Source: Candidatus Bathyarchaeota archaeon
GTDB lineage: Archaea > Thermoproteota > Bathyarchaeia > Bathyarchaeales > Bathycorpusculaceae
DNA: 64,000 nt
Reading direction: 5' to 3'
Assembly (NCBI GenBank): GCA_963702095.1
Contig: OY969706.1
Span: forward strand, 1,760,001-1,824,000
Shown here: positions 1,911 to 57,274 of the stretch, one piece after another
Numbering within the stretch: position 1 is the first letter of the stretch
How the letters are laid out: each line of letters opens with the position of its first letter
The notes under the pieces: generated by a model
What the model was told of the DNA's origin: nothing
Database searches by the model: none
Seen by the model: only the letters and a program-made list of their open reading frames with translations
Program-made: the position numbers and the translations under genes

Positions 1911-2046
1911 ATCTGCTTGTGGTTTACTCCACAACCCGTCTGCAATGTGCTTCAACCGCAGAACCGAGAAAGCACATCACAGCATAGCCCGCGGGTAGAT
2001 GATGAGTAAGGGCGGCGCTCTCTTCTTCTTAACACTAGAAAAACAA
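1911..2046 (+). repeat. Dispersed intergenic element family A, copy A1
   Basis: Aligns by eye with four other copies: TCTGCTTG..CCACAACC..CGCAGA..GATGATGAGTAAGGGCG..TCTTCTTCT..AACACTAGAAAAACAA. Confidence 0.9.
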
Positions 2047-2196
2047 TCCGCTGTTTATCGCCAAAACGTCTCTGTTGCCCTTCTTATCCATGCAAAACAG
2101 CATTATAATCTATAGAGTTAATTGGAATTTTGAGGTAATTTTGAACTTACTCTTAAATATATGTGCATAAATTTCTATTGTTAAAGGTTGTAGAGA

Positions 2197-2607
2197 ATGG
2201 TAGAGCAAAAACTACACGCAACTCTAATTACCGGTAGAACTATCGAACAGGGCGTTGCAAAGGAGCTGGGAAAAGGCTCCATAGAGTACTATGACAGCTG
2301 CGCCGTTTGCTTCTTCGACAAATCTGACATGGTGAAGCTGGGCATAAAAAAAGGTTCAACCATCCGAGTCACCTCGAAGTTCGGCTCAGTCATAGTTAAA
2401 GCCCAAAGATATCCCTGGGGAACAATGCAGGGGATGGTTTTTATTCCATGCGGTTCATGGGCAAACGCCATCACTGGCGACGACACCTACAGCATGGGTA
2501 TGCCTCTCTTCAAAGGGTTCCCTGTTGAAGTTGAGATTGCTCTAAACGAACCCGTCTTAACCTTAGATGAGCTCTTACTCAAAGAGTTTGGGAGGAACAG
2601 TCAATGA
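2197..2607 (+). CDS. fwdD: Formylmethanofuran dehydrogenase subunit D
   Basis: LITGRTIEQG, VFIPCGSWAN and GMPLFKG motifs; first gene of a fwd operon. Confidence 0.92.
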   Translation: MVEQKLHATLITGRTIEQGVAKELGKGSIEYYDSCAVCFFDKSDMVKLGIKKGSTIRVTSKFGSVIVKAQRYPWGTMQGMVFIPCGSWANAITGDDTYSMGMPLFKGFPVEVEIALNEPVLTLDELLLKEFGRNSQ

Positions 2608-4170
2608 GTAAAGTTGTGGAAAACGTAGTTTGTCCAATCTGCGGTTGCCTCTGCGACGACTTAGAAGTAACGGTGGAAAACAACGAAATCGTAAAGATGA
2701 AGAATGGCTGCTCAGTATGCGAAGCAAAGATGGTTCACGGCTACAAAAGCGAAGAACGCATCCTCAAACCACATATTCGCAAGGACGGCAAACTTGTACC
2801 TGTCTCCATGGATGAAGCAATCAAAAAAGCCGCCCAAATCTTAACAGACGCCAAATACCCGCTTCTCTTCGGTTGGAGCAGCACCGTCGGCGAAGCCCAA
2901 CGCATCGGCGTCGAGTTAGCTGAAGAACTCGGTTCAACACTGGACAACTGCTGCAGTGTCTGCCATGGTCCCTCAGTGATGGCGACACAGGAAATCGGCA
3001 TACCAGCCGCAACCTTAGGCCAAATCCGTCACCGCGCAGACCTAATCGTTTACTGGGCATGCAACCCATGGACTAGTCACCCACGCCACGTTGAACGCTA
3101 CACAGCATTCACTGACTGGCCGCTTCGAAGGAAGCGAATGGAAAGATTACATGCAGAAACTCAAAGCCGGCGCAAGCCGCAAAAAAATGGAAGTAGCTTC
3201 AAAACGCATCGCACGCGCCGAGCCACCCATCCATCCCGCCGTATGCTTCACAGGTCCCCCGCCTCAGACACTGCAAAAGCATGGGCGCAAAATGATTGTA
3301 GTTGATGTGCGCAAAACCATGACTGCGGAAGCCGCAGACTATTTCATGCAAATTGAACCCAACCGTGACTACGATGTAATCGAGGCGTTGCGGTGTTTAG
3401 TTCAGGACCAAGAAATCGACGTTGACAAAGTAGGCGGAGTTCCCGTTGACTACCTCCGTGACGTCGCTGACGCCATGATGAACTGTGAATTCGGCGTTAT
3501 CTTCTTCGGCTTAGGCATGACTCAGAGCCTGGGCAGATTCCGAAACATCGAAATCGCCATTGCACTCGCCCGTGACCTCAACAGAAAAACCAAGTTCATC
3601 ATTTCACCCATGAGAGGGCACTTTAATGTTACAGGCGCCAACATTGTTTTCGCTTGGCAAACCGGTTACCCCTATGCAATCGACTTCTCACAGGGTTACC
3701 CACAGTATAACCCCGGAGAAAACACCGTTATTGACCTGCTAAAACGCGGTGACAACGACGCAACCATGGTTATCTCCGCTGACCCCGGCGCTCACTTCCC
3801 CAAAGTCGCCATGCAAAACATGGTAAAGTACCCCTTAATCACCATCAACCCCGACTGGAACGCCATTTCAAGAATAGGCGACGTAGTGTTTCCGACGCAG
3901 TGGTGCGGCATTGAATATGCAGGCACCGCCTACCGCATGGATTCAGTTCCGATTACACTCAGAAAAGTTGTTAATGCACCCAAGGGCGTGTTTACTGACC
4001 AGGAACTTTTAACCCGCATTCTTGATGAAGTCCGCGCTATTAAAGTAAAAAGAGGCGACATGGTCGAACAAGCTGAGGTAAAACCCATTCACCAAGAAGT
4101 TAAAGTCAAGGCTGAGAAACCTTGTCCTGAACCAAAAAAAACAGTGAAAAAGAAGGTGGTTGCTAAATGA
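2604..4170 (+). CDS. fwdB: Formylmethanofuran dehydrogenase subunit B (one +1 frameshift near 3117)
   Basis: CPICGCLCDD, CHGPS and HPRH in ORF 2604-3305; MRGHFNV, TGYPYAIDFS and GTAYRMD in ORF 3091-4170. Removing one T at actgac(t)ggc restores FTDGRFE. Confidence 0.92.
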
Positions 4171-5867
4171 CTGAAATACTCATAAAAAACGGTTTCGTAG
4201 TAGACCCCTTACACAAGATTAACTGTGAAAAGATGGATATAGCCATCAAAGACGGCAAAATCGTTAGGGATGTTAACGAGAAAACAGCCCAAGTCATCGA
4301 CGCATCAGGCATGACAGTTATGGCTGGCGGAGTAGACATTCACAGTCACATAGCCGGCGCAGAAGTTAACATGGGCAGAATGATTCGCCCCGAAGATCAC
4401 TACAAAGACGTCGTGGCAAAAACCGCTATTACCCGCGCAGGCACAGGCTACTCGATTCCCTCCACCTTCGTTACAGGCTACCGCTACTCAGAGATGGGTT
4501 ACACATCCGTCTTCAATGGTTCCATAGCGCCGCTGAAAGCCAAACACTGCCATGAAGAACTAAACGACATACCCCTCATGGATAAAGCAACTTACGTTTT
4601 AACAGGCGACTGGTGGTTTGTACTTGAAAACCTCGCCAAAGGCGACATAGACGAATGCGCTCGCCTAGTCGCTTGGCTACTGCAAGCCTCACGTGGATAC
4701 GCCATCAAAGTCGTGAACCCCGGCGGCTTAGAATCCTGGGGTTTCGGACACAACGTACACAGCATCGACGACCAAGTGCCCAACTTCTGCATCACACCCA
4801 GAGAAATCATGCGCGGCTTAGTCAAAGTTAACAAGAAACTCAACTTGCCCCACACCATCCACCTCCACACTAACAATCTCGGAGTCCCCGGCAACTACCA
4901 AACCACACTGGACACCATGAAGGCGCTGGAGGACCTCTCAACAGACGGCAAACCAGTTTGCCACATTACCCATGTTCAATTCGCAGCTTTCAAAGGCGAA
5001 AACTGGGGCAAATTCAAATCAGGCGCAGAAGAAATCGCCAACTACATGAACGCCCACACCCACATAACCTTAGACATGGGGCAAGTGACATTCAAAGACA
5101 CTACAACCATGACTGCCGATGGCCCCTTCGAGTTCAGCCTCTATGAACTGGGCGGCCACAACAAATGGGTTAACAGCGATATCGAAACCGAGAGCAGCGG
5201 CGGCATCATACCTTTCCACTACAAGAAAAACAGCCCCGTCAACGCGTTGCAGTGGTCTATTGGCTTAGAAATAGCGTTGCTAATTAAGGACCCATGGAAA
5301 ATCTTCATGACCACCGACCACCCCAACGGCGGACCCTTCTACGATTACCCCAAAGTACTTTCTTGGCTATACAGCAAAAAAGCACGTGAAGCCACCCTTG
5401 CGAAGTGCCACAAGAGCGCCAGGAGAAAGAGCTTGCTGCCTTCGATTGACCGCGAGTTGAGCCTCTACGAAATTGCTATCATGACCCGCGCAGGCACTGC
5501 TAAAGCGCTGGGGTTACCCAATAAGGGTCACCTCGGCGTTGGTGCAGATGCAGACGTAGCCATCTTCAACATTAACCCTGAAACCTTAGACATCACACAG
5601 AAGTTCCGAACTGCCCGCAAAGCCTTCGCAAATTCAGCTTACACCATCAAAGATGGCGTAATAGTTGTTAAAGACGGTCAAGTGGTTAACAGCCAAGTTC
5701 CGGGCAGAACCATATGGGTTGACTCGCAAACCAAGGATCCCTGCAGAATCGATGATGATATGAAACGCAAATTCCGAGAGTACTGGACCATCGAATACGA
5801 AAACTACGCAGTTACCGACCACTACGTAAAGGTTCCAGATAAACTAACCATAAAGGCAAGTGTGTAA
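4167..5867 (+). CDS. fwdA: Formylmethanofuran dehydrogenase subunit A
   Basis: Amidohydrolase DIHSHIAG, KVVNPGG, HLHTNNLG and TTDHPNGGPF motifs. Confidence 0.95.
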   Translation: MTEILIKNGFVVDPLHKINCEKMDIAIKDGKIVRDVNEKTAQVIDASGMTVMAGGVDIHSHIAGAEVNMGRMIRPEDHYKDVVAKTAITRAGTGYSIPSTFVTGYRYSEMGYTSVFNGSIAPLKAKHCHEELNDIPLMDKATYVLTGDWWFVLENLAKGDIDECARLVAWLLQASRGYAIKVVNPGGLESWGFGHNVHSIDDQVPNFCITPREIMRGLVKVNKKLNLPHTIHLHTNNLGVPGNYQTTLDTMKALEDLSTDGKPVCHITHVQFAAFKGENWGKFKSGAEEIANYMNAHTHITLDMGQVTFKDTTTMTADGPFEFSLYELGGHNKWVNSDIETESSGGIIPFHYKKNSPVNALQWSIGLEIALLIKDPWKIFMTTDHPNGGPFYDYPKVLSWLYSKKAREATLAKCHKSARRKSLLPSIDRELSLYEIAIMTRAGTAKALGLPNKGHLGVGADADVAIFNINPETLDITQKFRTARKAFANSAYTIKDGVIVVKDGQVVNSQVPGRTIWVDSQTKDPCRIDDDMKRKFREYWTIEYENYAVTDHYVKVPDKLTIKASV

Positions 5868-5869
5868 CC

Positions 5870-6679
5870 ATGATAACCCTCACACCTCTTAGAACCTTCG
5901 AAGTCCCCCTCCAAGCACCCTGCATCACACCCGACAACTTTGCAGGCAAAACAAAAGCTGAAATCGCAAAGCTCCCCCTAACCGAAGGCAACCGCAACCT
6001 TACAATCGGTGACCTCTTCAAAATTGAAGAATCCCCCGAAGCCACACCCAACATCACCTTAAACGGAGACTTTGGCAAAGTCAAACGTGTCGGCCAACGC
6101 ATGCAAACCGGCGAAATCGTATGCAACGGCAACATCGGCATGCATACAGGCGAAATGATGGCAGGCGGCAAAATCACGATTAACGGCAATGCAGGCGGCT
6201 GGACAGGCAGCGAAATGAAGAAAGGCACCATTGAAATCCACGGCAACGGCGGCGACTACCTTGCATCGCCCTCCAGAGGCAACGACGCCGGAATGAAAGG
6301 CGGCTTAATCACCGTTGACGGCAACGTAGGCACCGACGTAGGCTGCTACCTCAAAGGCGGCGTAATCAAAGTCAAAGGCTCAGCCGGCAAATTCCTCGGT
6401 TACCACATGAGCGACGGAGCCATCTACGTTGAGAAAGAGTGCGATGTCCGAGCAGGCGCATGTATGCATGGCGGAAAAATCATTGTCGGGGGCGCCTTGG
6501 AAATCTTGCCGTCATTCACGATAGACAACACTAAACCCAAAGTCAAAGTCGACGACACCCAAAGCGTGGCGGGACCCTTCTATGTGTTCCTAGGCGACCT
6601 TTCTGAGCACGGCACAGGCAAAATCTTTGCAAACAAAGCCGCAAACACTGCATTGAAATTCTACGAAAAATACCTCTAA
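5870..6679 (+). CDS. fwdC: Formylmethanofuran dehydrogenase subunit C
   Basis: GxxMxGGxI beta-helix repeats; operon position. Confidence 0.95.
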   Translation: MITLTPLRTFEVPLQAPCITPDNFAGKTKAEIAKLPLTEGNRNLTIGDLFKIEESPEATPNITLNGDFGKVKRVGQRMQTGEIVCNGNIGMHTGEMMAGGKITINGNAGGWTGSEMKKGTIEIHGNGGDYLASPSRGNDAGMKGGLITVDGNVGTDVGCYLKGGVIKVKGSAGKFLGYHMSDGAIYVEKECDVRAGACMHGGKIIVGGALEILPSFTIDNTKPKVKVDDTQSVAGPFYVFLGDLSEHGTGKIFANKAANTALKFYEKYL

Positions 6680-6794
6680 TTGGGCACTTTTTACCCTCAT
6701 TACTTTCGTTTTTTTTGTTCGTAAAGCTATGCTTTTGTAGCCGAATGACTTATCAGCGCCATTTAATTTTTAGAAGCATGCGGATTGAATTGTT

Positions 6795-7580
6795 ATGCGC
6801 CAAGTTGACATGACAAGGCTTGACCTTTCAGCGGGTACAGCCACCAAAATGATGGATTGGGTCGCGGAGGAGGTTCCGCTTAAAATAACCGTTAACAGCG
6901 AATACACTTTTGTCATCTGGTGCTCGCCCATGCAGTTCAAAGAGTTAGCTGTGGGGCACCTCTACGCCGAAGGCATCCTGCACTCGGTGGATGAAATCGA
7001 CGGGGTAACTGCGGGCGAGGTAAAAAACTTCTGCTATGTGCAATTCAAACCTGAAATCGACATTGGCGAACGCATGGAGAACCGACGCCAAGGAGCCCGA
7101 ATCGTGCCTTTGCTCAAAGCCAGCACCGCAGCCTACCAAAAAGACGCTAAACTATCCGTTGTACAATCGGATTTTACTGTTAAAGCGCAGGTTATCTTAG
7201 ACGCCATCGCCCAGATGAACGAAAAAGCCTGTGGCTTCCGCGAAACAGGCGGGCTCCACGACAGCGGCATATTTAGAGCCGACGGCACCATGGTTGCCTT
7301 CTCCGAGGATGTGGGCAGACACAACACCGTAGACAAAGTCATCGGCGAAGCCCTGCTTAACCGCTTAAACTTTGGCGAATGCTTCATGGTCATAACGGGC
7401 AGGGTGCCAGGCGACATGATTTACAAGGCGGCGAAAGTTGGTTTGCCTGTTTTGGCTTCGGTGGCGGCGGTGCTAAACTCTGGTGTAGCTTCAGCCGAGA
7501 AAGCCCACGTCACTGTTGTGGGGTTTGTGCGGGGTAAACGTATGAACGTCTACACTTGTCCAGGGCGGATCCAGCTTTAA
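6795..7580 (+). CDS. fdhD: FdhD sulfurtransferase
   Basis: EEVPL, ELAVGHLYAEG, TGGLH and EDVGRHNTVDK motifs. Confidence 0.92.
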   Translation: MRQVDMTRLDLSAGTATKMMDWVAEEVPLKITVNSEYTFVIWCSPMQFKELAVGHLYAEGILHSVDEIDGVTAGEVKNFCYVQFKPEIDIGERMENRRQGARIVPLLKASTAAYQKDAKLSVVQSDFTVKAQVILDAIAQMNEKACGFRETGGLHDSGIFRADGTMVAFSEDVGRHNTVDKVIGEALLNRLNFGECFMVITGRVPGDMIYKAAKVGLPVLASVAAVLNSGVASAEKAHVTVVGFVRGKRMNVYTCPGRIQL

Positions 7581-8116
7581 TCTTTGATTTCTTTTTTTAG
7601 TATCCCAATCAGTTTGACGCCTTCCTCAGGCAACTTAACCAGCGGTATCCCATCAAAACTGGTTTCAGGTGTGCCCTTTGTGTACAAGCCTGTAATCGCC
7701 AGCACTGGTCCAGAAGTGCCCTGCAGGGTTCGCTCCAAATCTTCTTTCTCTTTGGCAGTAACGATTTTTATGATGTCTTGGCGTTTAGAAATCAAACCGT
7801 GGAAGCCCTCTATGAAAACTATGTCGAGCCGTTCGTTCCGAATAAGCCCCAGTATTCTGTCGAGGTCTTTTAGTTCCTGCTCAGTCTTTTTTATGATGTC
7901 GATTTCATGGGGAGAGACGCCGACGACGACTTTGGCGCCTGCCTGAGCATAACGCCAAGTGTTGGTCCCTTCCCTGTCGATGGAAAAGTTTTCGTGGTGA
8001 ATGTGCTTAACTGCGCCGACGCAGTAGCCTTCCCCTGAGAAATGGGAAATGAGGTATTCGAGGACGGTGGTTTTTCCCGAGCCACTGATTCCAACTGATG
8101 CGATGATTAAAACCGT
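7577..8116 (-). CDS. mobB: Molybdopterin-guanine dinucleotide biosynthesis protein B (apparent ACG start)
   Basis: Manual translation upstream of the 72-aa track ORF, in frame: VLIIASVGISGSGKTT..AVKHIHH..IDREGTNTWRY..IEGFH. No ATG/GTG/TTG before the upstream in-frame TAG. Confidence 0.88.
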   Translation of the reverse strand, partial: TVLIIASVGISGSGKTTVLEYLISHFSGEGYCVGAVKHIHHENFSIDREGTNTWRYAQAGAKVVVGVSPHEIDIIKKTEQELKDLDRILGLIRNERLDIVFIEGFHGLISKRQDIIKIVTAKEKEDLERTLQGTSGPVLAITGLYTKGTPETSFDGIPLVKLPEEGVKLIGILKKEIKD

Positions 8117-8308
8117 TGTTTTTTCTCTCCGTTGGATGTGATGGACTTGGCTTGTAATAAATAATGTCTCTGCCTACCTATAGCATGCCGACTATTCAAC
8201 GGTGCTAATTCCTGTGGCTAACAATACAGGATTTTGTTTGCGCTGATGGCGAACTTGCGGGTTTTCATTGGGCAGAATAAAGAGGTTAATGCAGAGTCCA
8301 AAACGCGT

Positions 8309-9988: not shown

Positions 9989-10187
9989 TTATGTTATGCC
10001 CCCTCTCTTGCGCTTAGAATCTGCCCTGTACTATTCTAAACGTAACTTATGCATTGGGTTGCGTTTAATATCTACCTTTCCGTAAAATACGTGTTTTCAT
10101 CGAGTGGTGTACAATAGAACATTTTTTTCATGAAATCGATTCAGGGCACTCTATTTTGCCGTCGAAGGCTCTGGGCTTTGATTGATT

Positions 10188-10322
10188 TTGTTTTTCTATT
10201 GTTAGATGAAGGCGGAGCGTCTCTTACTCTTCTTCTTCCTGTGGGCTTTGCTGGCGGCTGTTTTTTTGCTTCTGCGTTTGGCTTGGGTTGCTGGCTGGTT
10301 GTGGAGCAAGCCTCAATCAGAA
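10188..10322 (-). repeat. Dispersed element family A, copy A2
   Basis: Reverse complement aligns without gaps over the 99-nt core; tail reads GAAGAAGAAGAGTAA. Confidence 0.85.
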
Positions 10323-10358
10323 CACCAAACCTTTAGTCCACTGATTTAAAAAGGGAGA

Positions 10359-11513
10359 CTAAGTAGAGGGTGCTGGACGAGTGCCTAAAGGCACATGGAC
10401 AATTATTGTATCTGCGCCTCTCACGATGCGTAAGTCAACGTTTTGTCCAGGTAAAGTGTTCTCTTCAAGGTAGCTTGCTAAGTCATCGTTGTTGCGTATT
10501 GTCTGATTTACCTTGCCGTTATCCATGCCTACTAAAATGTCGTCAACTGTTAATTTGCCGTCACAGGGCCCGCCTCTTACAACCGAGGCGATTTTCCAGC
10601 CATAGGTAACCTTAGAGTTGCTTTCCTGCGCTAAGGGGTAACTCATGTCGGTTCCTGTGACGCCTAAATAGGAGTGCCCATTGTAGCCGCCCGTAGTAAT
10701 CAAAGACGGGATCTCCCGAAGAATAGTGTTGGAGGGAATAGCGAAGCCTAAACCCTGCGAATCGCTAACGATGGCAGTGGTTATGCCTACTACGTTGCCC
10801 ATGGAGTTAAGCAGTAATCCGCCCGAGTTGCCGGGGTTAATTGGTGTGCTGGTTTGGATAACGTTGGCTATGGCGTATTTATCGGCGGTGTCTTCGGTGA
10901 TGCTGCGTCCAGTTGCGCTGACGACGCCAGTGGTTAAGGAACCGACGAGACCATAGGGGTTTCCGATGGCTATTACGGGTTCGCCGACGCGCAGGGGAGA
11001 AGAACTAACGATTGTCACTGGTTTAAACTGGGATGAGTCTGCCCCGCTAACTGTGACTACGGCTAAGTCAGCGTAGGGGTCTTTACCTATGACGCTGGCG
11101 GGGTATCCTTTGCCACTGTTGAAGGTGACGCTTAACGAGGTTGTGTCTTCAACAACATGGTAGTTGGTTATGACAACGTATTGACCACCGTAATTGTAGA
11201 CAAAACCCGAACCCTGTACGCCGCCACCGTCACTTGTTTCCCCTTGAATCAGAACCACAGAGTCCTTCACGTTAGCGTACAGGTCAACCAGTGAAGTGCC
11301 ATTCTGCAGTATGGTGATGTTTTGGTACGTAACATTCTGGAAACCCTGAAGCCCCAAAAAGTCAGTCTGCAAGTTCGCCATCTGCCCAGTTAGGTTCTTG
11401 ACTTCTTGGTAGTTAACATAGAACATGAGTAATCCGCCGACGAGTAACCCTGCAACGAAGAGCAGTATGAATAGGCTGGCGGAGGCTTTAGTGGCACTCT
11501 TAGACGTTAACAC
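10359..11513 (-). CDS. HtrA/DegP-like serine protease with PDZ domain
   Basis: N-terminal TM segment; TNYHVV, DLAVV and INPGNSGG catalytic motifs. Confidence 0.93.
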   Translation of the reverse strand: MLTSKSATKASASLFILLFVAGLLVGGLLMFYVNYQEVKNLTGQMANLQTDFLGLQGFQNVTYQNITILQNGTSLVDLYANVKDSVVLIQGETSDGGGVQGSGFVYNYGGQYVVITNYHVVEDTTSLSVTFNSGKGYPASVIGKDPYADLAVVTVSGADSSQFKPVTIVSSSPLRVGEPVIAIGNPYGLVGSLTTGVVSATGRSITEDTADKYAIANVIQTSTPINPGNSGGLLLNSMGNVVGITTAIVSDSQGLGFAIPSNTILREIPSLITTGGYNGHSYLGVTGTDMSYPLAQESNSKVTYGWKIASVVRGGPCDGKLTVDDILVGMDNGKVNQTIRNNDDLASYLEENTLPGQNVDLRIVRGADTIIVHVPLGTRPAPST

Positions 11514-11557
11514 TTAGGTACACCTCGAAACAGAATTACAGAATAAGAACATAAAAG

Positions 11558-12565: not shown

Positions 12566-12615
12566 AACGTTTACCCTCTGAGAATTCAGCATAGCGCTTA
12601 TTTAAAGTTGTATGG

Positions 12616-23439: not shown

Positions 23440-23524
23440 GAACTGCAGGCGGATACACTCGTCCGCTGGGATGTGGTCCCCTCGGGGACTGAACCGCAAA
23501 CAAAACAGTCAAAAGTGAAAAGCA
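23440..23524 (+). promoter_or_regulatory. Structured 5' leader of rpl15e
   Basis: BRE/TATA-like GAAAAGGTTTATC at ~23405-23417, then hairpins GCGGA..TCCGC and GTCCCC-TC-GGGGAC. Confidence 0.5.
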
Positions 23525-24151
23525 ATGGCATACAAATACATGGCCGACGAATGGGCTCAGCCCGAAAAAAGCTTCGTCGAAGAACTTAATCGCCAACGCC
23601 TAGTGCAATGGCGTAAACAACCAAGCACCCTTAGAGTAGAAGGCCCAACCCGGCTTGACCGAGCGCGTAAACTGGGCTACAAAGCCAAACAGGGCTTCGT
23701 AGTTGCACGCACAAAGGTCCGCAGAGGCGGATTGCGTAAGCTCAGACCAAGATCCGGTAGACGCCCCAAACGTATGGGTGTTGCTAAATTCAAACCTGGA
23801 AAATCAATCCGCTTAATTGCGGAAGAACGAACCGCCAAACATTTCCCCAATCTAGAAGTCCTAAACAGTTACTGGGTCGGAGAAGACGGCAGACACAAGT
23901 GGTTCGAAGTTATCCTCGTTGACCCCAACGCGCCAACCATCAAAACAGACAAAGACATCGGTTGGATCACCGAGAAACAGCATACAAACCGCGTTTTCCG
24001 CAGCATGACCAGTGCGGGCAAAAACGTGCGTGGCTTACATCACCGCGGCGCAGGCGCAGAGAAAGCGCGTCCAAGTCACCGCAGAGGAGCCAAAAAACAC
24101 AGCGGCGTAAAACGTCAACGCAAAGGAGATGGACCATATGCACCAAGTTAA
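23525..24151 (+). CDS. rpl15e: 50S ribosomal protein L15e
   Basis: PTRLDRARKLGYKAKQG and LEVLNSYWVGEDGRHKWFEVILVD motifs. Confidence 0.97.
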   Translation: MAYKYMADEWAQPEKSFVEELNRQRLVQWRKQPSTLRVEGPTRLDRARKLGYKAKQGFVVARTKVRRGGLRKLRPRSGRRPKRMGVAKFKPGKSIRLIAEERTAKHFPNLEVLNSYWVGEDGRHKWFEVILVDPNAPTIKTDKDIGWITEKQHTNRVFRSMTSAGKNVRGLHHRGAGAEKARPSHRRGAKKHSGVKRQRKGDGPYAPS

Positions 24152-32548: not shown

Positions 32549-32684
32549 TTGTTTTTTCTAGTGTTAGAAGAAGAGAGTGTCGCCCTTACTCATCATCTTC
32601 CAGTGGGTTTGGCTGTGGCGCCTGTTTTGGCATCTGCGTCTGGTTTGGGTTGCAGGCTGGTTGAGGCGGAGTCCACAAGCAGAC
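32549..32684 (-). repeat. Dispersed element family A, copy A3
   Basis: About 90 nt identical to copy A4 at 51502. Confidence 0.92.
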
Positions 32685-32736
32685 CACACAAAACTGCCGT
32701 TGATCTATTTTAAAGCCCCCATAACACAACCCACAC

Positions 32737-33596
32737 TTAACACAATACCCATTCAGCCCAAAGCCTATCAAAATAGCCGCGGCAAACTGCAACCAAACCC
32801 GTGTGCTTACTCCACAAATCAGGCCCTGTGGTCAAACGAGCAGCCCATCAAAAGTCATAGCCACCTGTGCGCCGTCAAAAACGGCGATGACAGCTGCAGG
32901 CGCATTAGGCATCGTCCGCAGCTCAAAAACCGCGCTATCAAGCGCATTTACCCATTTGGAGACGGAATATCGAGACGGTTTCTCAACAACCACACGCACC
33001 CGCACACCCCGCTTAAGAGCAGCCTTCAGCTCACCCTCAAAATGAAAACACAACTGCCTAAACCGCACCCAACTACAAACCAACTCAACACAACCCTGCG
33101 CCGCCTCCAACGCGGCGGCATATTTTTTGCCCCCTTCCCCCTCGCAGACTGCGCCAAAGCAGGGCAGAAGCGACTCCATCACCGATGGGGCTGGCGGGTT
33201 TTGGCTGAATTTCTCCGTAACATGCTTTGCCTTATGAGAAATCACCATTAACTCGCTAGCTCTAACCGCAAACAACGTCTTTACAGCCTCAGGAAACGGC
33301 ACCGCAACATAACTAACAGGAACCGTCAAATTCTTTTGCACCAGCCCCAACTGCTGCAACTCCAAAAGCAAACGATATGCCTCCTGACGAGCTACGCCTG
33401 CTGCGTTTGCAACAGGTCGCGCCCTAGCATCGTCCGCTTTAAGCAGTGCCAGATAGACACGCGCTTGCCGCTCTGAAAGACCCAGACCAATCAAAACCCC
33501 AACCCCCTCCAAACCAGCACGATTAAACGTTTGAGACAGCTTTCGCGGTTTAACTACGTTTGATTGCAATCTATTTTCACCTATAACAATACTCAA
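32737..33596 (-). CDS. TrmB family regulator (frameshift in a G-run near 32845)
   Basis: LGLSERQARVYLALL HTH; shifted frame supplies the C-terminal LWSKHTGLVAVCRGYFDRLW. Confidence 0.85.
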
Positions 33597-47930: not shown

Positions 47931-48069
47931 CCTTATGCCTCTACCTGCTTATTTGTTTGCGCTCTTTAAGGGCTTTACGCTGCAGTAGGATTAAAAAGAA
48001 GAATCCTATCAAAAATTTAATAGGAATTTTTTTATGGTAGGACACTCGCCTATTTAGTGGGGAACAATC

Positions 48070-48309: not shown

Positions 48310-48310
48310 C

Positions 48311-48709
48311 TTGAAAGAAGTCCTCGACACCCGCTTTTTGAGGGAATACTTGTACTCTAACCAAGACACGCCAAAACAGAAACTGGCAAGGAAACTCGAT
48401 GCACTTATAGCCACAAACGAGGGCATACTGCCAACAATAGTCCTGGCCGAAATAACCCAAATCACCTGTGCACTGCGGGGTAAAGATATGGCACATAGCC
48501 GCTGCCAAGCCCTAATCCAAAGCGGACTCCAAATCCAAGAATTAACACCTCAAATCGCCGAGCAAGCCGGATTATTCAAATGCCAATACAGCAACCTGCC
48601 AATGGGCGACTGCATAATCGCAGCAACAGCGCTGATAACTCACGCGAGGGTGCTCTCTGACGACCCCCATTTTGACGCCATCAAAGAAATAAAACGCATC
48701 TGGATATAG
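48311..48709 (+). CDS. vapC: PIN-domain toxin
   Basis: Acidic residues in VLDT, LAE, GDC and SDDPHF. Confidence 0.88.
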   Translation: MKEVLDTRFLREYLYSNQDTPKQKLARKLDALIATNEGILPTIVLAEITQITCALRGKDMAHSRCQALIQSGLQIQELTPQIAEQAGLFKCQYSNLPMGDCIIAATALITHARVLSDDPHFDAIKEIKRIWI

Positions 48710-48715
48710 CACCCT

Positions 48716-48955
48716 TTATCTGCCCTGTTCGGCTTGAACTGCACTCTGCCTAAGTTCCTCAGTCGCGTAAAGCTCCACTTTGCAGCAGTTGGGACACACA
48801 AACACGTACATGGGAATCATGGATTCTCCGAGTTCGCCCCACTCGCCGATTAACAGGTTGATTCCGCCGCTGGTGCCGCCGACACGGAAGGGGGCAGTGT
48901 AGAGGTACTGTGCGTTTTGACCGCAGAAGGTACATTTCCTTGTATTTCCACTCAA
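48716..48955 (-). CDS. Small Zn-ribbon protein
   Basis: CTFCG..FRVGG..CPNCCKVELY. Confidence 0.75.
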   Translation of the reverse strand: MSGNTRKCTFCGQNAQYLYTAPFRVGGTSGGINLLIGEWGELGESMIPMYVFVCPNCCKVELYATEELRQSAVQAEQGR

Positions 48956-49039
48956 GTGATTCAGCCTCTAACCCATTAGGCGATCACAAACTAAAGCATT
49001 TACTCAAGAGGAGGGTAAGTGCCACCATAGAAAAGTGGC

Positions 49040-50587: not shown

Positions 50588-50683
50588 ACTTGACCAAGTT
50601 CAAAGGTGATAGACTTTTCAATAAAAACTTATTCGTCAAGGTTCCTTGACTAAACTTGGCTAAGTTTAGACCAAAAAACTGTT

Positions 50684-50761
50684 TGGTGGACGAGGCGGGA
50701 TTTGAACCCGCGGCCTCTGCAATGCCAATGCAGCGTTCATACCAAGCTGGACTACTCGCCC
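50684..50761 (-). tRNA. tRNA-Ala(GGC), CCA encoded
   Basis: Acceptor stem GGGCGAG/CTCGTCC with G3:U70; anticodon arm CTGCA-TTGGCAT-TGCAG; T-arm GCGGG-TTCAAAT-CCCGC. Confidence 0.95.
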
Positions 50762-50963
50762 ACTTTTTTGCCTGGCTTCTGAGATTTACTCCATCTCGTT
50801 TAATAAGCATTTCTTTATGCAGCGGCTGAAGCATCCACAGAAGCCACGAATGTGCTTCAAAACTGTCGGTTGAGCATTGAAAACTTGGTTTTTTGACGGT
50901 GACACTAAAATAGGATGTTTCCCCATGAAATAGTATCTTCGTTTATTCCGTTTTATAGGTAAA

Positions 50964-51479
50964 TTGGGAGATGATTTGTTGAGAGTAGAAATCGTTCGTG
51001 CTGTAACCAAACCAATCTGCTCCTTTAGGGAGCATTTCAAGAATTTCGAGGACATTGATGCCGTGCAAAAAATATTCGGCGGCAAAACACAACATGTAAT
51101 CGAGAACTTGGAAGTTGAATTCACCGATAACACACTCTACATGAGCGTCGACTACGACGGACGCTTACAAGTCAACCCCAACTACTTAGCAACCGGCAAC
51201 TTCGCCGACTTATACCTTGACATCATCCATGAACTTGTCCATGTACGGCAGGTGCTAAACGGCAAGAACTGCAACCATGCATTGCCCTATGTGGAGCGTC
51301 CCCTCGAAATTGAGGCTTACCGAACTGCAGTTGACGAAGCCAGAGCGTTAGGGTGGGATGAGAGCCGAATACTATGCTACTTGGATTCTGATTTGATTAA
51401 CGCTGAAGAATTCCGCAAGCTGGCGGCGGCGTTGGAACTCACCGTGGAAGAGGAGCCGCTAAGAGAAGAGAACGATTAA
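50964..51479 (+). CDS. Hypothetical zincin-like protein
   Basis: IHELVHVRQ (HExxH) and downstream EIEAY. Confidence 0.7.
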   Translation: MGDDLLRVEIVRAVTKPICSFREHFKNFEDIDAVQKIFGGKTQHVIENLEVEFTDNTLYMSVDYDGRLQVNPNYLATGNFADLYLDIIHELVHVRQVLNGKNCNHALPYVERPLEIEAYRTAVDEARALGWDESRILCYLDSDLINAEEFRKLAAALELTVEEEPLREEND

Positions 51480-51501
51480 TGCTTAAGCTGGTCAGCGTCG
51501 G

Positions 51502-51632
51502 CGTTGCTTGCGGAATCCGCCTCAACCAGCCTGCAACCCAAACCAGACGCAGATGCCAAAACAGGCGCCACAGCCAAACCCACTGGAAGATGATGAGTAA
51601 GGGCGACTCCCTCTTCTTCTTAAACTATAAAA
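51502..51632 (+). repeat. Dispersed element family A, copy A4
   Basis: Near-identical to A3. Confidence 0.92.
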
Positions 51633-51909
51633 TTGTCTCCAAAGGCTCAAAAGGCCAGAGGCAACCCTAAAATCCTGCCTTGGGAGCGCAGAAAACCAGG
51701 ATGTTCTAAGCCAACCAACACCGTAAATGGCATCCCCAGAAAATGGAGACGCAGTCTGCATGTACGAAAGGTTCTTAAGGTATATGGTATTCTTCTACAC
51801 GGCAAGAAATCGGCATATCACTGCCAATTCAGGTAACAACCAGCTTCAATTTTGGAGCAGGTTAGACCAACATAAAAGAATAAATAGTCCGATGAAGAGG
51901 TGAAAAGGT

Positions 51910-52230
51910 ATGGAAAACATTTACGCAGCAATGCTCCTTCACAAGGCAAGTAAAGAAATCAACGAAGAATCCGTAACCAAAGTCCTAAACGCAGCAGGAA
52001 TCACAGTGGACGCAGTTCAAATCAAAGCACTCGTAGCTTCACTAAGCGAAGTAAACATCGATGAAGCAATCAAAGCAGCCCCAACCATGATGGCAGCAGC
52101 ACCAGTTGCAGCACCAGCAGGCGGCGAAGCAAAACCAGCAGCTCCAGTAGAAGACAAGAAGAAGAAAGCTGAAGAGGAAAAAGCCAAAGAAGAAGCAGCA
52201 TTAGAAGGATTAGGCGCCCTATTCGGGTAA
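51910..52230 (+). CDS. rpl12p: Ribosomal stalk protein L12 (aP1)
   Basis: YAAMLLH, Ala-rich hinge and GLGALFG terminus. Confidence 0.96.
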   Translation: MENIYAAMLLHKASKEINEESVTKVLNAAGITVDAVQIKALVASLSEVNIDEAIKAAPTMMAAAPVAAPAGGEAKPAAPVEDKKKKAEEEKAKEEAALEGLGALFG

Positions 52231-52357
52231 ACAAGCCTCACATTTCTTATTTTTAACCATTTTTCCCCAAATTATTTATTCTACTTCTGACTAGCCTTGA
52301 TTTTACCTGAAAATTCTTTGATATTTAGTAAGAGATTGCCGAGGGAAATTCTATTCG

Positions 52358-53503
52358 CTATAATGGAGTTGCCGTTGGCTGAGCAGCCTGCTCTGCAGTT
52401 GTTGCTGGAGCAGGCGGTTTAATCTTGTTTCTTGTGCTAAAGATTTTCCACGCAGCCACAGGCAACCAACCGGTGATGATGCAGACAGTCGCGGGGAAGC
52501 CTTTGATGCCAAAGTAACCGGTTATTTCAGGTAGAAAAGCTTCCCATATACCAAAGGACAATGCAATTGCGGCAGCCGCTATTAAACCGGCGCGTACATC
52601 AAATTTCTTGTAAGTTTGTGTAACCAAGATTCCCGCAAAGAAGAAATCACCTAATCCCAGACCGCGAAGCCCAATTTCACCCGCCTGAGTCAAAACCAAA
52701 GGCAGGTTAGGCAAATAAACCAGTACCGGAAGACCTAGACCGGTGAAGGTTTGGGCTGCAGCCACCATTGGTCCAGTGAAAACTAAGATTACGTCGATTA
52801 TTGGCAGGACGGCGGCGAAGATCCAGGTTGTCTTCCAACTGAACAGGGATGAGAGGTAGAGGATGATGAGGATGGCGAAGGTGAAGGCGAAGACATCCAT
52901 TAATATGGGGAACCAAACGTTGAAGGCGCCATTGTATATTGCTGCGAAAAAGAGAAACAGGAGCACGAACAGGGCTGGCGGCTGAGCAGCGAGGTACCAT
53001 CTCGGCTTTGTGATGCTGTATTTCTGTTCAAACGCCACTGCGGCAAAGCAGAGGCCTGAGAGGACAAAAAACGCTATTGCCCTATAGATTGTGTATTCGT
53101 CGGTGAATGGCGCGGCAAAGCTGGAGAACCCTGCGATTAATGCGCTGACGCCGAAGGCGGTGGAGATGATTTGTGCACGTACCCTAGTCAGGTTGGTGAA
53201 GACATAGGAGAATGTGAAGAGCAGCATGGTGTAGGATGCTAGGAATAAGAGCAGTAGAAGGTTTGGCACTAAGCCGCTTGGGTTAACGGTGGATGTATAG
53301 CCGATAACTACAACCATAATTACGATGAAAGCCGCAAGTGCAAGTATATCGCGTGTCTTGAACTCTTTCTGTTCAACCGTTGCCACCAACTTTTTTTCAA
53401 CACGCATGTTGAGGAACATAGCTACCGTTATCACTATGAAGAGCGCTATGGGCATGGCAAGGTCAAGAGTCGGCATAGGCTTCACAATAACCAAAAGAAA
53501 CAT
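52358..53503 (-). CDS. Presenilin/signal-peptide-peptidase-like GxGD intramembrane protease
   Basis: LGLGDFF motif, upstream Asp (IIDV), FPAT at the PAL position. Confidence 0.75.
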   Translation of the reverse strand: MFLLVIVKPMPTLDLAMPIALFIVITVAMFLNMRVEKKLVATVEQKEFKTRDILALAAFIVIMVVVIGYTSTVNPSGLVPNLLLLLFLASYTMLLFTFSYVFTNLTRVRAQIISTAFGVSALIAGFSSFAAPFTDEYTIYRAIAFFVLSGLCFAAVAFEQKYSITKPRWYLAAQPPALFVLLFLFFAAIYNGAFNVWFPILMDVFAFTFAILIILYLSSLFSWKTTWIFAAVLPIIDVILVFTGPMVAAAQTFTGLGLPVLVYLPNLPLVLTQAGEIGLRGLGLGDFFFAGILVTQTYKKFDVRAGLIAAAAIALSFGIWEAFLPEITGYFGIKGFPATVCIITGWLPVAAWKIFSTRNKIKPPAPATTAEQAAQPTATPL

Positions 53504-53544
53504 TTATTCCTTTAGCCAAAATCCCCAAAACTTAAGCAGAAGGC

Positions 53545-54414
53545 TCAATAGGGGAAATAAACGTTAAAAATGGCTAAAGTAGCCAAAAGCGCCTCTTCAG
53601 TGCGAACGGTAACTGTACCCTGATTGGGAACCGTGTTCACCATAAAATCTGATAGCTCAGACAAATTTAGAGATTCATCTTCGACAATCTCATGGAGTCC
53701 ACGTGAGGGTGCGCCAAAAGCTACCAAAACATGGTTGCTGCCAAGCCATCTCTGGCTGATTTTGTCTAAAACATCGGTAAAGTTGTCGCCGACTCTGGCA
53801 GTAGCAATTTTCAAATCAAAAGCAGAATCCTTCAAAAGCTGCCCAGCGGAGCGTTTTTCAACGTGCACGGTGTAGCCCCAGTACAGCGGCACCTCGTCGC
53901 GGCTAACAGTTTGCACCTCCACATGGTCGCCTATGTTAACCACCTGCACAGTTAACCGCTCGCCGACACGATACTGTGTTTGCCTTAGAAGCGCAGACTG
54001 CTGAACGCCAATGTCTACCAGTAAACCTTCTTTGCCCCCAGACTGCACTAAGCCTTCGCGGTACTCGCCGATTTTAAGATGCTTGGTTTTGCCGCTCAAC
54101 GGGTGATGGGGCGTGCGTAGCGGCGGCAGAATCCCCGCGTATTGCAGGTCAGGCTCCAGTTTGAAGAGTGTTTTTCGGAGGTACTGGGGTGTTTCTATGT
54201 AGTTTAGGAGTAGGGCGATGAGGTCGAGGTCTTGGCGTTGATTGATTTTGGCGTTGTCTGGGTAAACTATGATTTGGTTTACACGGAAAATCGCTGCGGA
54301 CCGGGCGATTAAGCCGATTTTGGCGGTTTTTTCCCGCAGGTGAGGCGTGTCAGAGATAACTGAGGCTGGAATGGCGATTGAGAGCTTAACTTTATTCATG
54401 CTAACTCTATCCAT
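53545..54414 (-). CDS. SPOUT RNA methyltransferase (DUF171/MTH1 family)
   Basis: ETPQYLRK, GILPPLRTPHH and PNQGTVTVRTEEA motifs. Confidence 0.9.
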   Translation of the reverse strand: MDRVSMNKVKLSIAIPASVISDTPHLREKTAKIGLIARSAAIFRVNQIIVYPDNAKINQRQDLDLIALLLNYIETPQYLRKTLFKLEPDLQYAGILPPLRTPHHPLSGKTKHLKIGEYREGLVQSGGKEGLLVDIGVQQSALLRQTQYRVGERLTVQVVNIGDHVEVQTVSRDEVPLYWGYTVHVEKRSAGQLLKDSAFDLKIATARVGDNFTDVLDKISQRWLGSNHVLVAFGAPSRGLHEIVEDESLNLSELSDFMVNTVPNQGTVTVRTEEALLATLAIFNVYFPY

Positions 54415-54489
54415 GCGCTTTTTTGTCTGCGTTGAGCTTAAAAGGCGGGATTGAGATATAAAACTGCGGGTTGTTTGGAGGACACAGAG

Positions 54490-55590
54490 TTGGTTAAACC
54501 CATTTTAGATGATATGGAAAAGATTCTTGCAGTAGATAAAAGCGGAACCATAAACTACTATGTTGATTCGCCCAAGCATTACAGAACGGCACTGGAAATT
54601 GCAAAGGACATCACGGTTAACTATCCCAAACCAGGCAACATCGTCGTGGCTGGTATGGGCGGCTCAGCCATCGGCGGCGACCTACTCAAAGACTGGACAA
54701 AAGACAAACTGCGTGTCCCCATAGAAGTCAACCGAGAATACCAACTACCCCAATACGCCGGCGAAAAAACCCTCGTGGTAGCTTCAAGTTACTCCGGCGA
54801 CACCGAAGAAACCCTCAGTGCCTTCCTAGACGCCCTCAAACGGGGGTGCATGGTGTTCTGCATAACCAGCGGCGGCGCACTACTGGAAGCCGCTAAAAAA
54901 CACAAGGTGCCGCATCTGCAGGTTCCCGGCGGTATGCCTCCACGGGCAGCGTTACCCTACATGTTTGTTCCTACACTTGTCCTCTTGGAGAAGCTTGGTT
55001 TGGTTGAAGGCGTCGAAGACGAGGTAAAAGAAGCTTATTTGCTGCTTGAGAAAATCGTCGAGGAGAATGGACCCCAAAAGCCGGCGGTCGAGAACTTTGC
55101 CAAGAACACCGCATACCACATCGGTGATTCTGCGCCGGCGGTGTATGGTTTTGGCGTTTACCGCAGTGTGGCACAGAGGTTTAAGCAGCAGTTTAATGAG
55201 AACAGTAAATCCGCCGCTAAATGGGAAGTTTTCCCCGAACTTGACCACAACGAAATCGTGGGCTGGTCAGGTAGAGGCGAGCAATGCCGCTTTTTCTCGG
55301 TAATCTTCATCCGCGATAGTGCTGAGCCGGTTGAAATCGAGGCGCGGATTGAAACCACTAAGAGCATTATGGAGCGGGTGGGCTTAATCACGTTTGAACT
55401 TGACACACAGGGCACAAGCCTGCTGGCGAAGATTATATCCACTATAGTTGTAGGTGACTTCCTCAGCGTGTATTTGGCTGTGATGCGTGGAGTCGACCCC
55501 ACACCTGTCCCAACCATAGACTACCTTAAAAACTCGTTAAAAGAGAATGGGTTTAGGGAGAAAGTTGTGGCTGAGCTAGAAAAAGCCTAA
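54490..55590 (+). CDS. Bifunctional phosphoglucose/phosphomannose isomerase
   Basis: GMGGSAIGG, SYSGDTEET, PRAA, NENSK and PELDHNE motifs. Confidence 0.93.
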   Translation: MVKPILDDMEKILAVDKSGTINYYVDSPKHYRTALEIAKDITVNYPKPGNIVVAGMGGSAIGGDLLKDWTKDKLRVPIEVNREYQLPQYAGEKTLVVASSYSGDTEETLSAFLDALKRGCMVFCITSGGALLEAAKKHKVPHLQVPGGMPPRAALPYMFVPTLVLLEKLGLVEGVEDEVKEAYLLLEKIVEENGPQKPAVENFAKNTAYHIGDSAPAVYGFGVYRSVAQRFKQQFNENSKSAAKWEVFPELDHNEIVGWSGRGEQCRFFSVIFIRDSAEPVEIEARIETTKSIMERVGLITFELDTQGTSLLAKIISTIVVGDFLSVYLAVMRGVDPTPVPTIDYLKNSLKENGFREKVVAELEKA

Positions 55591-55637
55591 CAGCCTCTTT
55601 TTCTGAAGTGAACAACTTTTTGTTATTTGCCTTTTTT

Positions 55638-55804
55638 TCTCTTTATGTGAGGTGGCGTTTTGTGGGGTGCTCCAGGACTGTAACTGGTGGCGGCTGCTTT
55701 TTTGGGTTGCAACTGTTTTTGGCGTCTGTTTCGGTGTGGGATATCCGATTTTTTCCACATGCCATACATGGCTCCATGTTGGATTGGCCATGGTGTGGAT
55801 GTGG
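55638..55804 (-). repeat. Dispersed element family B, copy B3
   Basis: Reverse complement aligns with B1 and B2. Confidence 0.9.
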
Positions 55805-56020
55805 AGCAACATACCTCCCAAAAAAACTAGTTCATGTACAAAAAAGTAACACGGAAAAAAGGTAAAACAAACAATAGTTGGTTACTTGTAAATCATGGTG
55901 TTTACAGGTTTAGAATGTTTTTCGGGCGGAGACGGGTATGAGGCTATCGGGCTTGGCTGTTGAGGGTAAGCTCTAGCAACAGGGGCTATATAGCAAAAAG
56001 CATTAAATGAAAAGGGAAAG

Positions 56021-57073
56021 TTAAGCCAAGAATTTTTTGAATTCCGCTTCCACAGTTTCCATTGGCAACATTTTAGGCGGATGCTTAAATCCATAAGCGC
56101 AAACCGCTTCGACTGCGCCCTTCTGCTTCCTTGACAGCGCCAACTTAACAGCTCGGACCACGTCGAGGAGGACGCTGCCCGCGTTGGGGGCATCGATGGT
56201 TTGGAATTTAAGGTCGATTTTAAGCGGTGTATTGCAGAAGTAGACGCCGCTTATGAAAAAGTAGCTATCCCGTTTGTTCTGCAGGAAATCCACATAGTCA
56301 GTGGAGCCTGCCACAACCTCGGTTTTGTATGGAAGCGCAGATGCGACGGATTGGGTTTTGATGTTGCGTTTGGTGTCGCGGGTGCGTTCCATGGTGTCGA
56401 CGGATTCTGTTCCTCCGCCCACGTCAAGCTGGTAGGTTTCGTTGATGTGGACGCCGCTGTCACTTAACAGTTTGAGAAGGGTTTTGTGGAGGGCGGTTGA
56501 GCCGACTTGGTCCACTAAGTCGTCGCCGACAACGGGTAAGTTTGCGTCTTCAAACTGCGCTGCCAATGAGGGTTCGCTTGCAACGAAGTTGGGTGTCGCG
56601 TTTATGAATGCGCAGTTAGCCGCTATGGCTTGTATAGCGTAGAATTGGGTGGCGTTGGTTGCGCCGCTTGGGAGCAGGTTAATGACGATTTCTGCGCCTG
56701 CTTTCATGAGGACTGCCGTGACGTTTGCGTCGGGTGCGGTGCTTAATTCAACGAGTGCTTTTGTTGATTCGCCGATACCGTCGAAGAGTGGACCTTTGGA
56801 GACTTTAACGCCCTGTTCTGGTACATCGGAGACTTTGGGGGCGTTGTTGGGTTTGGCGAAGATGGCTTCGGAGAGGTCGTAGCCGACTTTGCGTGCGTCA
56901 ACGTCGAATGCAGCCACTACCTCGATATTTAGAGGAGTCAAACCCGCCAGTAGGGGGTTGCGTAGTCCAAGGGTGTCTTGGGGGTTGGTTGTTTTGCTGT
57001 AGTATTGGATGCCTTGGATGAATGATGAGGCGCAGTTGCCTACGCCGATTAATGCTACTTTGACTTTGGGCAT
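56021..57073 (-). CDS. Inositol-3-phosphate synthase family protein (divergent)
   Basis: GVGNCASS, AAFDVDARKVG, GDD, DAPN and KHPP motifs. Confidence 0.85.
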   Translation of the reverse strand: MPKVKVALIGVGNCASSFIQGIQYYSKTTNPQDTLGLRNPLLAGLTPLNIEVVAAFDVDARKVGYDLSEAIFAKPNNAPKVSDVPEQGVKVSKGPLFDGIGESTKALVELSTAPDANVTAVLMKAGAEIVINLLPSGATNATQFYAIQAIAANCAFINATPNFVASEPSLAAQFEDANLPVVGDDLVDQVGSTALHKTLLKLLSDSGVHINETYQLDVGGGTESVDTMERTRDTKRNIKTQSVASALPYKTEVVAGSTDYVDFLQNKRDSYFFISGVYFCNTPLKIDLKFQTIDAPNAGSVLLDVVRAVKLALSRKQKGAVEAVCAYGFKHPPKMLPMETVEAEFKKFLA

Positions 57074-57141
57074 ACTTTATGGCACCTTGCTTGGCATGCT
57101 TATGTAGTGTTACCTTATAAAAGCTACGCACCTGCCTGAAC

Positions 57142-57274
57142 TTGTTTTTAGTATTAGAAGAAGGCAGAGACCGCCTTACTCATCATCTTCTCGGGGGCTT
57201 AGTGGACAGCTTCTTTTTTGGTTCCGCGTCAGGTTTGGATTGACAGCTGGTTGTGGCGAATTCCGCAAGCAGAT
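57142..57274 (-). repeat. Dispersed element family A, copy A5
   Basis: Ungapped 99-nt core ending GAAGATGATGAGTAA. Confidence 0.88.

Follow-up and report, generated by a model that had tools for sequence, protein, structure and literature searches.

What is the origin of the short, similar sequences that recur between the genes of a Candidatus Bathyarchaeota archaeon genome: are they a family of very small genes, or copies of a mobile element? The question is raised by a window of 64,000 nt, bases 1760001-1824000 of a single 2.94 Mb contig, in which a first-pass annotation had noted five dispersed elements of about 135 nt (here A1 to A5) with a core of constant length and a 30-codon frame, and had left two readings side by side, a multicopy microprotein gene family or a mobile, small RNA-like element. 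Our analysis makes it very probable that the family is an archaeal transposable element of the miniature inverted-repeat type (MITE) with about 180 copies, moved by an ISH3-like transposase, now stranded, and with copies that recombine with one another. Defining features of a MITE are present: the element is short and non-coding, has inverted termini and a 4-bp target duplication, occurs in dispersed and variable copies, and has its termini in common with an autonomous element.

The five copies are part of a much larger set. Iterated nhmmer searches of the whole genome (3 rounds; consensus of 132 nt) returned 176, then 183, then 182 copies, the last set comprising 99 on the forward and 83 on the reverse strand, so that the original count of five was far too low. 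All five were recovered at the places and on the strands first described, and a covariance model confirms their cores with scores of 120-146 bits and E-values of 1e-29 to 2.5e-36 (window coordinates):

A1 core, 1911..2043, forward strand: covariance model score 120.6 bits, E 1.2e-29
A2 core, 10191..10322, reverse strand: covariance model score 129.3 bits, E 5.8e-32
A3 core, 32553..32684, reverse strand: covariance model score 145.7 bits
A4 core, 51502..51633, forward strand: covariance-model match, 23 nt past the stop of an open reading frame (ORF) at 50964..51479, forward strand
A5 core, 57143..57274, reverse strand: covariance-model match, no recognisable arms

Statistics given below for 162 copies refer to the near-full set, with a profile start of at most 10 and an end of at least 125. 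The near-constant core length noticed in the window extends to the genome, columns 9-105 being free of indels in 120 of the 162 copies at a median pairwise identity of 61%. The copies of the family are old, core identity reaching at least 85% in just 16 of 13,041 pairs. The reported near-identity of A3 and A4 holds for the core, which is 94-95% identical between them, with unrelated flanks. The statement that all five copies are intergenic is borne out by crude ORF calling apart from A3, which is overlapped by a GTG-start ORF of 224 aa (32577..33251, forward strand); this ORF competes with one of 254 aa (32832..33596, reverse strand) and is probably spurious. At Rfam gathering thresholds, the whole window yielded only a tRNA and an eL15 leader and no family match for the element, and a scan of four copy-bearing loci at E <= 1 returned the tRNA only; the Rfam comparison proposed for the element is in this sense negative.

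With the family in hand, the reading as a multicopy microprotein gene family, in which each copy would encode a 30-residue peptide of the form M-x-x-x-PQPA-N...EDDE, could be examined beyond the window. The frame claimed for it, TTG followed by 29 codons and a TAA stop, is indeed present in all five window copies, it is intact in 25 of the 162 copies genome-wide, and the PQPA and acidic-tail motifs recur. However, 85 of the 162 copies contain at least one in-frame stop when counted on profile columns, a stop occurs at codon 2 in 31, the frame runs on without a stop in 35, the TTG is missing in 7, and TAA stands at the expected stop columns in 65. Mean column entropy at codon positions 1, 2 and 3 is 0.84, 1.11 and 1.03, its maximum falling on position 2 without the third-position excess of a coding sequence. 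The D/E tail of the peptide doubles as the 5′ arm of a hairpin; in other copies this arm is GTAGTAGTAG or GTTGTTGTTG, matched on the 3′ side, and its alternative versions translate as VVVV. Loss of the frame, internal stops and the lack of a coding substitution pattern rule out the microprotein family, to which we assign a negligible probability; by the test that the first-pass annotation had itself set, further copies with stops and lost frames decide against this half of its interpretation. Its caveat about chance open frames was right and accounts for them: open frames are common because a T-poor strand makes stop codons rare, and the 30-codon frame would be a by-product of this composition and of the (GWW)n/(WWC)n hairpin. 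The roughly 180 loci are better masked as a repeat than annotated as small ORFs, from which a naive small-ORF caller would yield dozens of false "conserved" 30-residue peptides.

The ends of the element lie just outside the boundaries first drawn, where terminal inverted repeats had been reported as absent. The consensus ends in 13-bp inverted repeats, CAGTAGATCAAAA...TTTTGATCTACTG, and an extended profile built from nine copies with both arms reads TTAA CAGTAGATCAAAA, about 8 nt, the core, an A-rich stretch and TTTTGATCTACTG TTAA, with termini TTAACAGTAGATCAAAA and TTTTGATCTACTGTTAA that form a perfect inverted repeat. The outer end of the left repeat is reached in 58 of 181 alignments and that of the right repeat in 48 of 181. 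When 11-mers were sought with at most 2 mismatches in the 162 copies, both repeats were found in 11, the left alone in 24, the right alone in 17 and neither in 110; arms are recognisable in about one third of copies. The terminal motif is tied to the element, 20 of its 35 genome-wide 12-mer matches adjoining a core. Target duplication was assessed in the 11 copies in which both 13-mers were found at no more than 3 mismatches: the 4-bp flanks are equal at three or more of four bases in 8 of the 11, perfectly so in two (TATA, ATAA), against 0 of 11 for the next 4 nt outward. A complete copy, about 160-180 nt long and without coding capacity, would be laid out as a 4-bp duplication, CAGTAGATCAAAA, some 5-10 nt, the 132-nt core, an A-rich tail, TTTTGATCTACTG and the second 4-bp duplication. 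Clear elsewhere in the family, the terminal repeats of the window copies are degenerate in A1-A3 and not recognisable in A4 and A5:

A1 left arm, 1881..1910, forward strand: candidate duplication ATAA at 1881-1884, degenerate left repeat CAGTGGGAAAACG at 1885-1897 (about 7 of 13 bases match the consensus TTAA-CAGTAGATCAAAA; assignment approximate), spacer
A1 right arm, 2044..2057, forward strand: A-rich tail, degenerate right repeat ..AATCCGCTG to 2053, TTTA at 2054-2057
A2 left terminal repeat, 10343-10331, reverse strand: CAGTGGACTAAAG, 9 of 13 bases
A3 left-repeat remnant, 32697..32710, reverse strand: AAATAGATCAACGG, about 9 of 13 consensus bases, approximate

The distribution of the element among relatives points in the same direction. 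Among 24 other genomes of the same genus, 14 have matches to the core model; among 16 from the order's other genera, none has. The number of scored core matches is at least 82, the scoring cap, in this genome, G007 and G014, 75 in G005, 33 in G024, 25 in G015 and 21 in G008; it is 1-3 in eight genomes and 0 in ten, one of which is a single contig at 97% completeness. Another five genomes from the genus gave 0, 1, 15, 0 and 0 matches. Such patchy copy number is like that of a mobile element and unlike that of an essential RNA gene family. The closest relative is G007, with 82-90% nucleotide identity over aligned stretches, in which the five window sites appear as follows:

A1 in G007: synteny breaks at the edge of A1, and alignment resumes at CTGTTTA, window position 2051
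A2 in G007: absent, with 10 nt directly past the stop codon against 240 nt here
A2, whole inserted block in this genome, 10120..10359, reverse strand: begins just past the stop of the ORF at 10359..11513, reverse strand
A3 in G007: present at the orthologous site (L043), core identity 0.689
A4 in G007: ortholog present, with an intact MITE nested in it
A5 in G007: present at the orthologous site, core identity 0.762, no indel

The copy nested in the A4 ortholog is the cleanest single event. A complete 160-nt MITE lies inside the 3′ end of that ortholog, with junctions ...CATC TTAA, CAGTAGAT...core...ATCTACTG, CTAA ACTAGAAAAG (spelled out, TTAA, CAGTAGATAAAAAATTTG-core-TTTGATCTACTG, CTAA ACTAGAAAAG), and at the same point this genome reads an uninterrupted CTTCTTCTTAAACTA. 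This insertion fixes both the termini of the element and its 4-bp duplication (TTAA/CTAA). The comparison of occupied and empty sites, which had been suggested as a check, gave presence/absence differences in both directions, A2 being missing in G007 and 3 of 10 collinear G007 sites being without the element here. Four candidate empty sites were inspected, three of them collinear (L212, L214, L229) and one with its flanks apart (L217), and are too diverged for exact junctions. At L212, which holds a full copy in G007, the counterpart here (genome 2452372-2452463) has about 48 nt with a 5′-like start, CTGCTT, and a 3′-like end, TAGAAG..GAAAAAC, and has the look of a remnant left by an internal deletion, not of an empty site.

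A candidate for the source of the transposition activity was found through the termini. An exact 15-mer of the terminal repeat, scanned against public genomes, gave mostly chance matches among 120 loci; one locus carries a complete MITE (L135, a Candidatus Bathyarchaeota record), and two, L074 and L090, led to an insertion sequence (IS):

Candidate parent IS, L074 2184-3349 (also a Candidatus Bathyarchaeota record): 1166 bp, termini CAGTAGATCAAAA...TTTTGATCTACTG, GTAA/GTAA duplication, one 363-aa ORF

All 13 terminal bases of this IS agree with the MITE consensus. Its 363-aa ORF matches Pfam DDE_Tnp_1 (E 8.7e-11, 42.4 bits, cut-off 23) and, over model positions 1-297 of 298, NCBIfam NF033541 (ISH3; E 2.6e-51, 174.5 bits against a cut-off of 225), the next-best family model being IS4 at 40.9 bits. 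Judged by these scores, the candidate parent transposase is ISH3-like, a distant relative of that family. G047 and G072, both of the same genus, have a transposase 93% identical to that of L074; the G047 copy is also 1166 bp long with the same termini, and its contig begins exactly at the end of the element. G076 holds a 682-bp deleted derivative of the IS, and relatives at 33-37% identity in G016 and G045 have termini CAGTAGATGGAAA, with a 5-bp duplication, GTTAC, in G016. The mobile half of the first-pass interpretation is in this way sustained by terminal repeats, 4-bp duplications, presence/absence between genomes and a cognate ISH3-like IS in the genus.

Searches for a resident autonomous element gave no candidate. 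The IS transposase had no protein match in this genome, G005, G007 or G014. Inspection by eye of the 20 partial matches in this genome revealed no pair of left and right parts around a transposase. An all-against-all comparison of its crude ORFs contained no multicopy transposase, a scan for repeat pairs with 3 mismatches allowed returned only noise, and DDE_3 had matches in 0 of 5 genomes. The DDE_Tnp_1 matches in G005 and G024 were rejected as parents on account of ends unrelated to those of the MITE, and two apparent "split" copies were rejected as autonomous elements on account of their paired genes, which read from the sequence as membrane or secreted proteins, not transposases.

Two further observations concern the surroundings of these elements. 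The ISH3-like IS and its deleted derivative lie between short, mutually inverted repeats at L074 1767-3380, L194 1340-2070 and L192 1154-1190 (GCTCGCCCC-GTAA / GTAA-GGGGCGAG at L074; CCCTCCCTTATA / TATAAGGGAGGG at L194), and it looks as if the IS had been inserted into a hairpin loop. The L074 hairpin is situated 10 nt past an ORF read as an IS200-type Y1 transposase from a sequence motif, no family search having been made. In the present genome, a duplicated block of about 3 kb (genome 197822-200994 and 988056-991195) with two genes, apparently for membrane or secreted proteins, is bounded at its first locus by a 5′ part (profile 1-82) and a 3′ part (profile 16-132) of the MITE core, and at its second locus by that 5′ part again and, at 991063, a near-full copy; the block is not a transposase-bearing element.

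Y1 transposases themselves bring another kind of mobile element into consideration, namely an IS200/IS605-type palindrome-associated transposable element (PATE), similar to repetitive extragenic palindromic (REP) sequences and moved as single-stranded DNA. The hairpins near both ends of the core, the near-identical pairs that match over exactly the core without a visible duplication, and the presence of Y1 transposase genes in the genus would all agree with such an element. The IS200/IS605-derived PATE class is not known to have inverted termini or a target duplication, however, and the element described here has terminal inverted repeats and 4-bp duplications. Moreover, the Y1 transposase model PF01797 has 0 matches in this genome and in the high-copy genomes G005, G007, G008, G014, G015 and G024, and matches instead genomes where the element has 0-3 copies, G002 and G016 among them; no TnpB scores above the cut-off in high-copy genomes, and no Y1 transposase was seen between the two core ends in the 20 partial matches inspected by eye. 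We regard this origin as very improbable.

Under the preferred reading as a MITE, movement would have occurred in trans, by cut-and-paste, through an ISH3-like DDE transposase whose own 1166-bp IS has the same 13-bp termini and likewise produces a 4-bp duplication at AT-rich targets (such as TTAA, TATA and ATAA). The approximately 182 copies would now be stranded, with the cognate transposase not found in the genome and most copies without recognisable arms. They still act as dispersed homology, recombining with one another (an inversion and many synteny breaks) and overwriting one another by gene conversion, as we infer for A3 and A4.

Evidence for recombination comes from the 40 best-scoring G007 copies, whose 600-nt flanks were mapped onto this genome, both flanks mapping in 36. 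Flanks map apart here for 26 of the 36, and of these, both flanks abut elements in 9, one flank does so in 10 and neither in 7; at the 10 collinear sites, the element is present here in 7 and absent in 3. One such rearrangement is a 17-kb inversion relative to G007, bounded by inverted copies at genome 934137-934268 (reverse strand) and 951329-951460 (forward strand), for which the G007 loci L208 and L228 are the reciprocal junctions with flanks swapped. For a crude background, some 38 kb of window DNA free of elements was compared with G007, and about five breaks other than contig ends were counted there by eye; on this basis, the enrichment of synteny breaks at copies is suggestive, not measured. 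In near-identical pairs, the cores are alike and the flanks and arms are not. The near-identity of A3 and A4 had been taken as a sign of recent copying; it seems best explained by gene conversion, with one of the two overwritten by the other, since G007 already has copies at both sites, only 68-69% identical to those found here. Since copies are sites of rearrangement between close relatives, they matter for the assembly and comparison of such genomes.

Several observations weigh against the MITE interpretation or limit it. Arms are recognisable in about a third of copies and the core is far better kept, the reverse of what is expected of a decaying MITE. Searches for the cognate transposase gave 0 matches in this genome and in the other high-copy genomes G005, G007 and G014, and G047, which has intact IS copies, has no core match, so that IS and MITE co-occur at the level of the genus only. 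The ISH3 model score of 174.5 bits lies below the NCBI curated cut-off, and beyond the termini no similarity between IS and MITE was visible when the two were compared by eye. Divergence of the flanks blurs the empty sites other than that of the nested insertion. Near-identical pairs have the core alone in common and not the arms, which agrees with gene conversion and is unlike the products of fresh transposition of a whole MITE.

The quality of the core itself raises the further question of whether it does something for its host. Consensus frequency is at least 0.85 in 51 of 132 core columns, and the conserved blocks include CCACAACCAGCCTGCAAC and the GWW/WWC hairpin. Divergence from G007 was compared over nine orthologous pairs of copies:

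Family-conserved columns: 26 of 364 differ (7.1%)
Intermediate columns: 102 of 374 differ (27%)
Variable columns: 158 of 347 differ (45.5%)
Four-fold degenerate sites of nine neighbouring genes: 493 of 1494 differ (33%)

Change in the core scaffold is about five times slower than at silent sites, and in the variable parts it is faster, in a small sample in which profile detection favours near-consensus copies and the column classes derive from the same family alignment. The pattern repeats when the comparison is limited to A3, A4 and A5, whose choice did not depend on a G007 score, with differences in 7 of 122 conserved against 61 of 116 variable columns (conserved columns versus four-fold sites, Fisher's test, p = 3e-12), and isolated conserved columns within the variable middle (49, 52, 57-60, 64, 76, 79) differ in 11 of 81 cases. 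The excess of change at variable columns is consistent with conversion; the deficit at conserved columns calls for selection at the level of the host or for conversion that favours the consensus.

Two hairpins, at profile columns 7-12/19-24 and 87-94/112-119, have modest support. Across 92 copies drawn from several genomes, the paired fraction of cells is 82% and the covariation score 0.129, compared with 0.064 in shuffles, none of 500 of which reaches the observed value; the alignment used was fitted to the structure. The 3′ helix shows compensatory changes in 5 of 8 pairs, its stem existing as GAAGAWGAWG/CTTCWTC, GTAGTAGTAG/CTACTACTAC and GTTGTTGTTG/CAACAACAAC. Such hairpins would be equally usable by DNA or RNA. 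RNAalifold gave no consensus structure for 150 copies on either strand, nor for 37 copies, and no TATA signal was detected at any fixed upstream distance in the 162 copies. With genes called by a crude ORF caller, 44 copies lie between tandem genes on the same strand, 31 between tandem genes on the opposite strand, 35 between divergent and 52 between convergent genes, and no strict relation to gene orientation was observed.

These data bear on a second, more speculative layer of interpretation, in which the MITE would carry a functional module, its core being used by the host as a structured small RNA or protein-binding DNA and kept by purifying selection at many loci. We consider this possible but unlikely. 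The divergence of conserved columns well below that of four-fold sites, and of variable columns above it, speaks for a function, as do the same constraint in A3-A5 and at the isolated mid-core columns, the indel-free core in 120 of 162 copies at 61% median identity, and the two hairpins with paired cells and covariation above shuffles. Against these stand the lack of a promoter signal at a fixed upstream distance, of an orientation preference relative to genes and of an RNAalifold consensus structure on either strand, together with contradictory G-U evidence as to the functional strand. The core is also dispensable in many genomes of the genus, which have 0-3 copies; gene conversion among copies, which has evidence in its favour, could keep blocks alike without any function; the alignment of the hairpin test was fitted to the structure; and profile detection favours copies that keep the consensus. 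It is similarly doubtful, though conceivable from the substitution pattern, that purifying selection acts at 100 or more loci on some 50 scaffold positions and on the exact 132-nt length, with the intervening segments free, in a payload on which the host has come to depend. A pattern of this kind would be expected of small structured RNAs or protein-binding modules that a transposon had dispersed and whose variable parts are specific to each locus. If it reflected function rather than conversion, the family would clearly exemplify the domestication of a transposon in archaea, and constraint on the core in orthologous copies is the one feature that lifts it above the routine.

Other features were noted in the window and elsewhere in the genome:

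Window 50684-50761, reverse strand: tRNA-Ala (GGC) gene
Window 23449-23500, forward strand: eL15-Euryarchaeota leader (Rfam, 46.1 bits, above the gathering score), ahead of a 208-aa ORF at 23525..24151
Genome, e.g. 1294910-1297630, forward strand, 906 aa: member of a family of 22 large paralogs that have a hydrophobic segment at the N-terminus and a membrane anchor at the C-terminus, the largest paralog cluster in the crude ORF set
Genome 1090399-1091847, 1210465-1211913 and 2735002-2736447: three copies, at 60% identity or more, of a 482-aa protein, which may be part of a repeated integrated element

Comparison with known systems places the family among elements of a familiar kind. Its candidate parent resembles ISH3 elements in that the transposase matches NF033541 from end to end, and in its general plan, with a length of about 1.2-1.4 kb, inverted ends and duplications of 4-5 bp, the duplication length that ISfinder gives for ISH3. 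It differs in scoring 174.5 bits where 225 are required, and the MITE has the 13-bp termini alone in common with the IS. High copy number in intergenic DNA, hairpin potential and a role as recombination substrate are shared with the bacterial enterobacterial repetitive intergenic consensus (ERIC) and REP sequences, which the present family does not resemble in its clear transposon termini and target duplications, nor in matching no Rfam family. Our literature search found no paper naming MITEs in Bathyarchaeia, and a high-copy, ISH3-linked MITE is hereby added for a Bathyarchaeia-like lineage. In the excerpted text of a 2024 review, archaeal MITEs are listed only for Sulfolobus (SM1-SM4), Halobacterium, Haloquadratum, Desulfurococcus and "several other" genomes, with 25-44 copies given for SM1-SM4 (PMC10969869). 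Like the MITEs described in that excerpt, the present element is short, non-coding, multicopy and mostly intergenic, has terminal repeats and a target duplication, has termini in common with an IS of the resident lineage, and varies in copy number among relatives (PMC10969869). Unlike SM1-SM4 as given there, it has some 182 copies, and unlike the archaeal MITEs in that list, it belongs to a bathyarchaeotal host and has a core that is better kept than its termini and constrained in orthologs (PMC10969869). The kind of element is ordinary, a MITE; its core is unusually well preserved, and its copy number is high for an archaeon.

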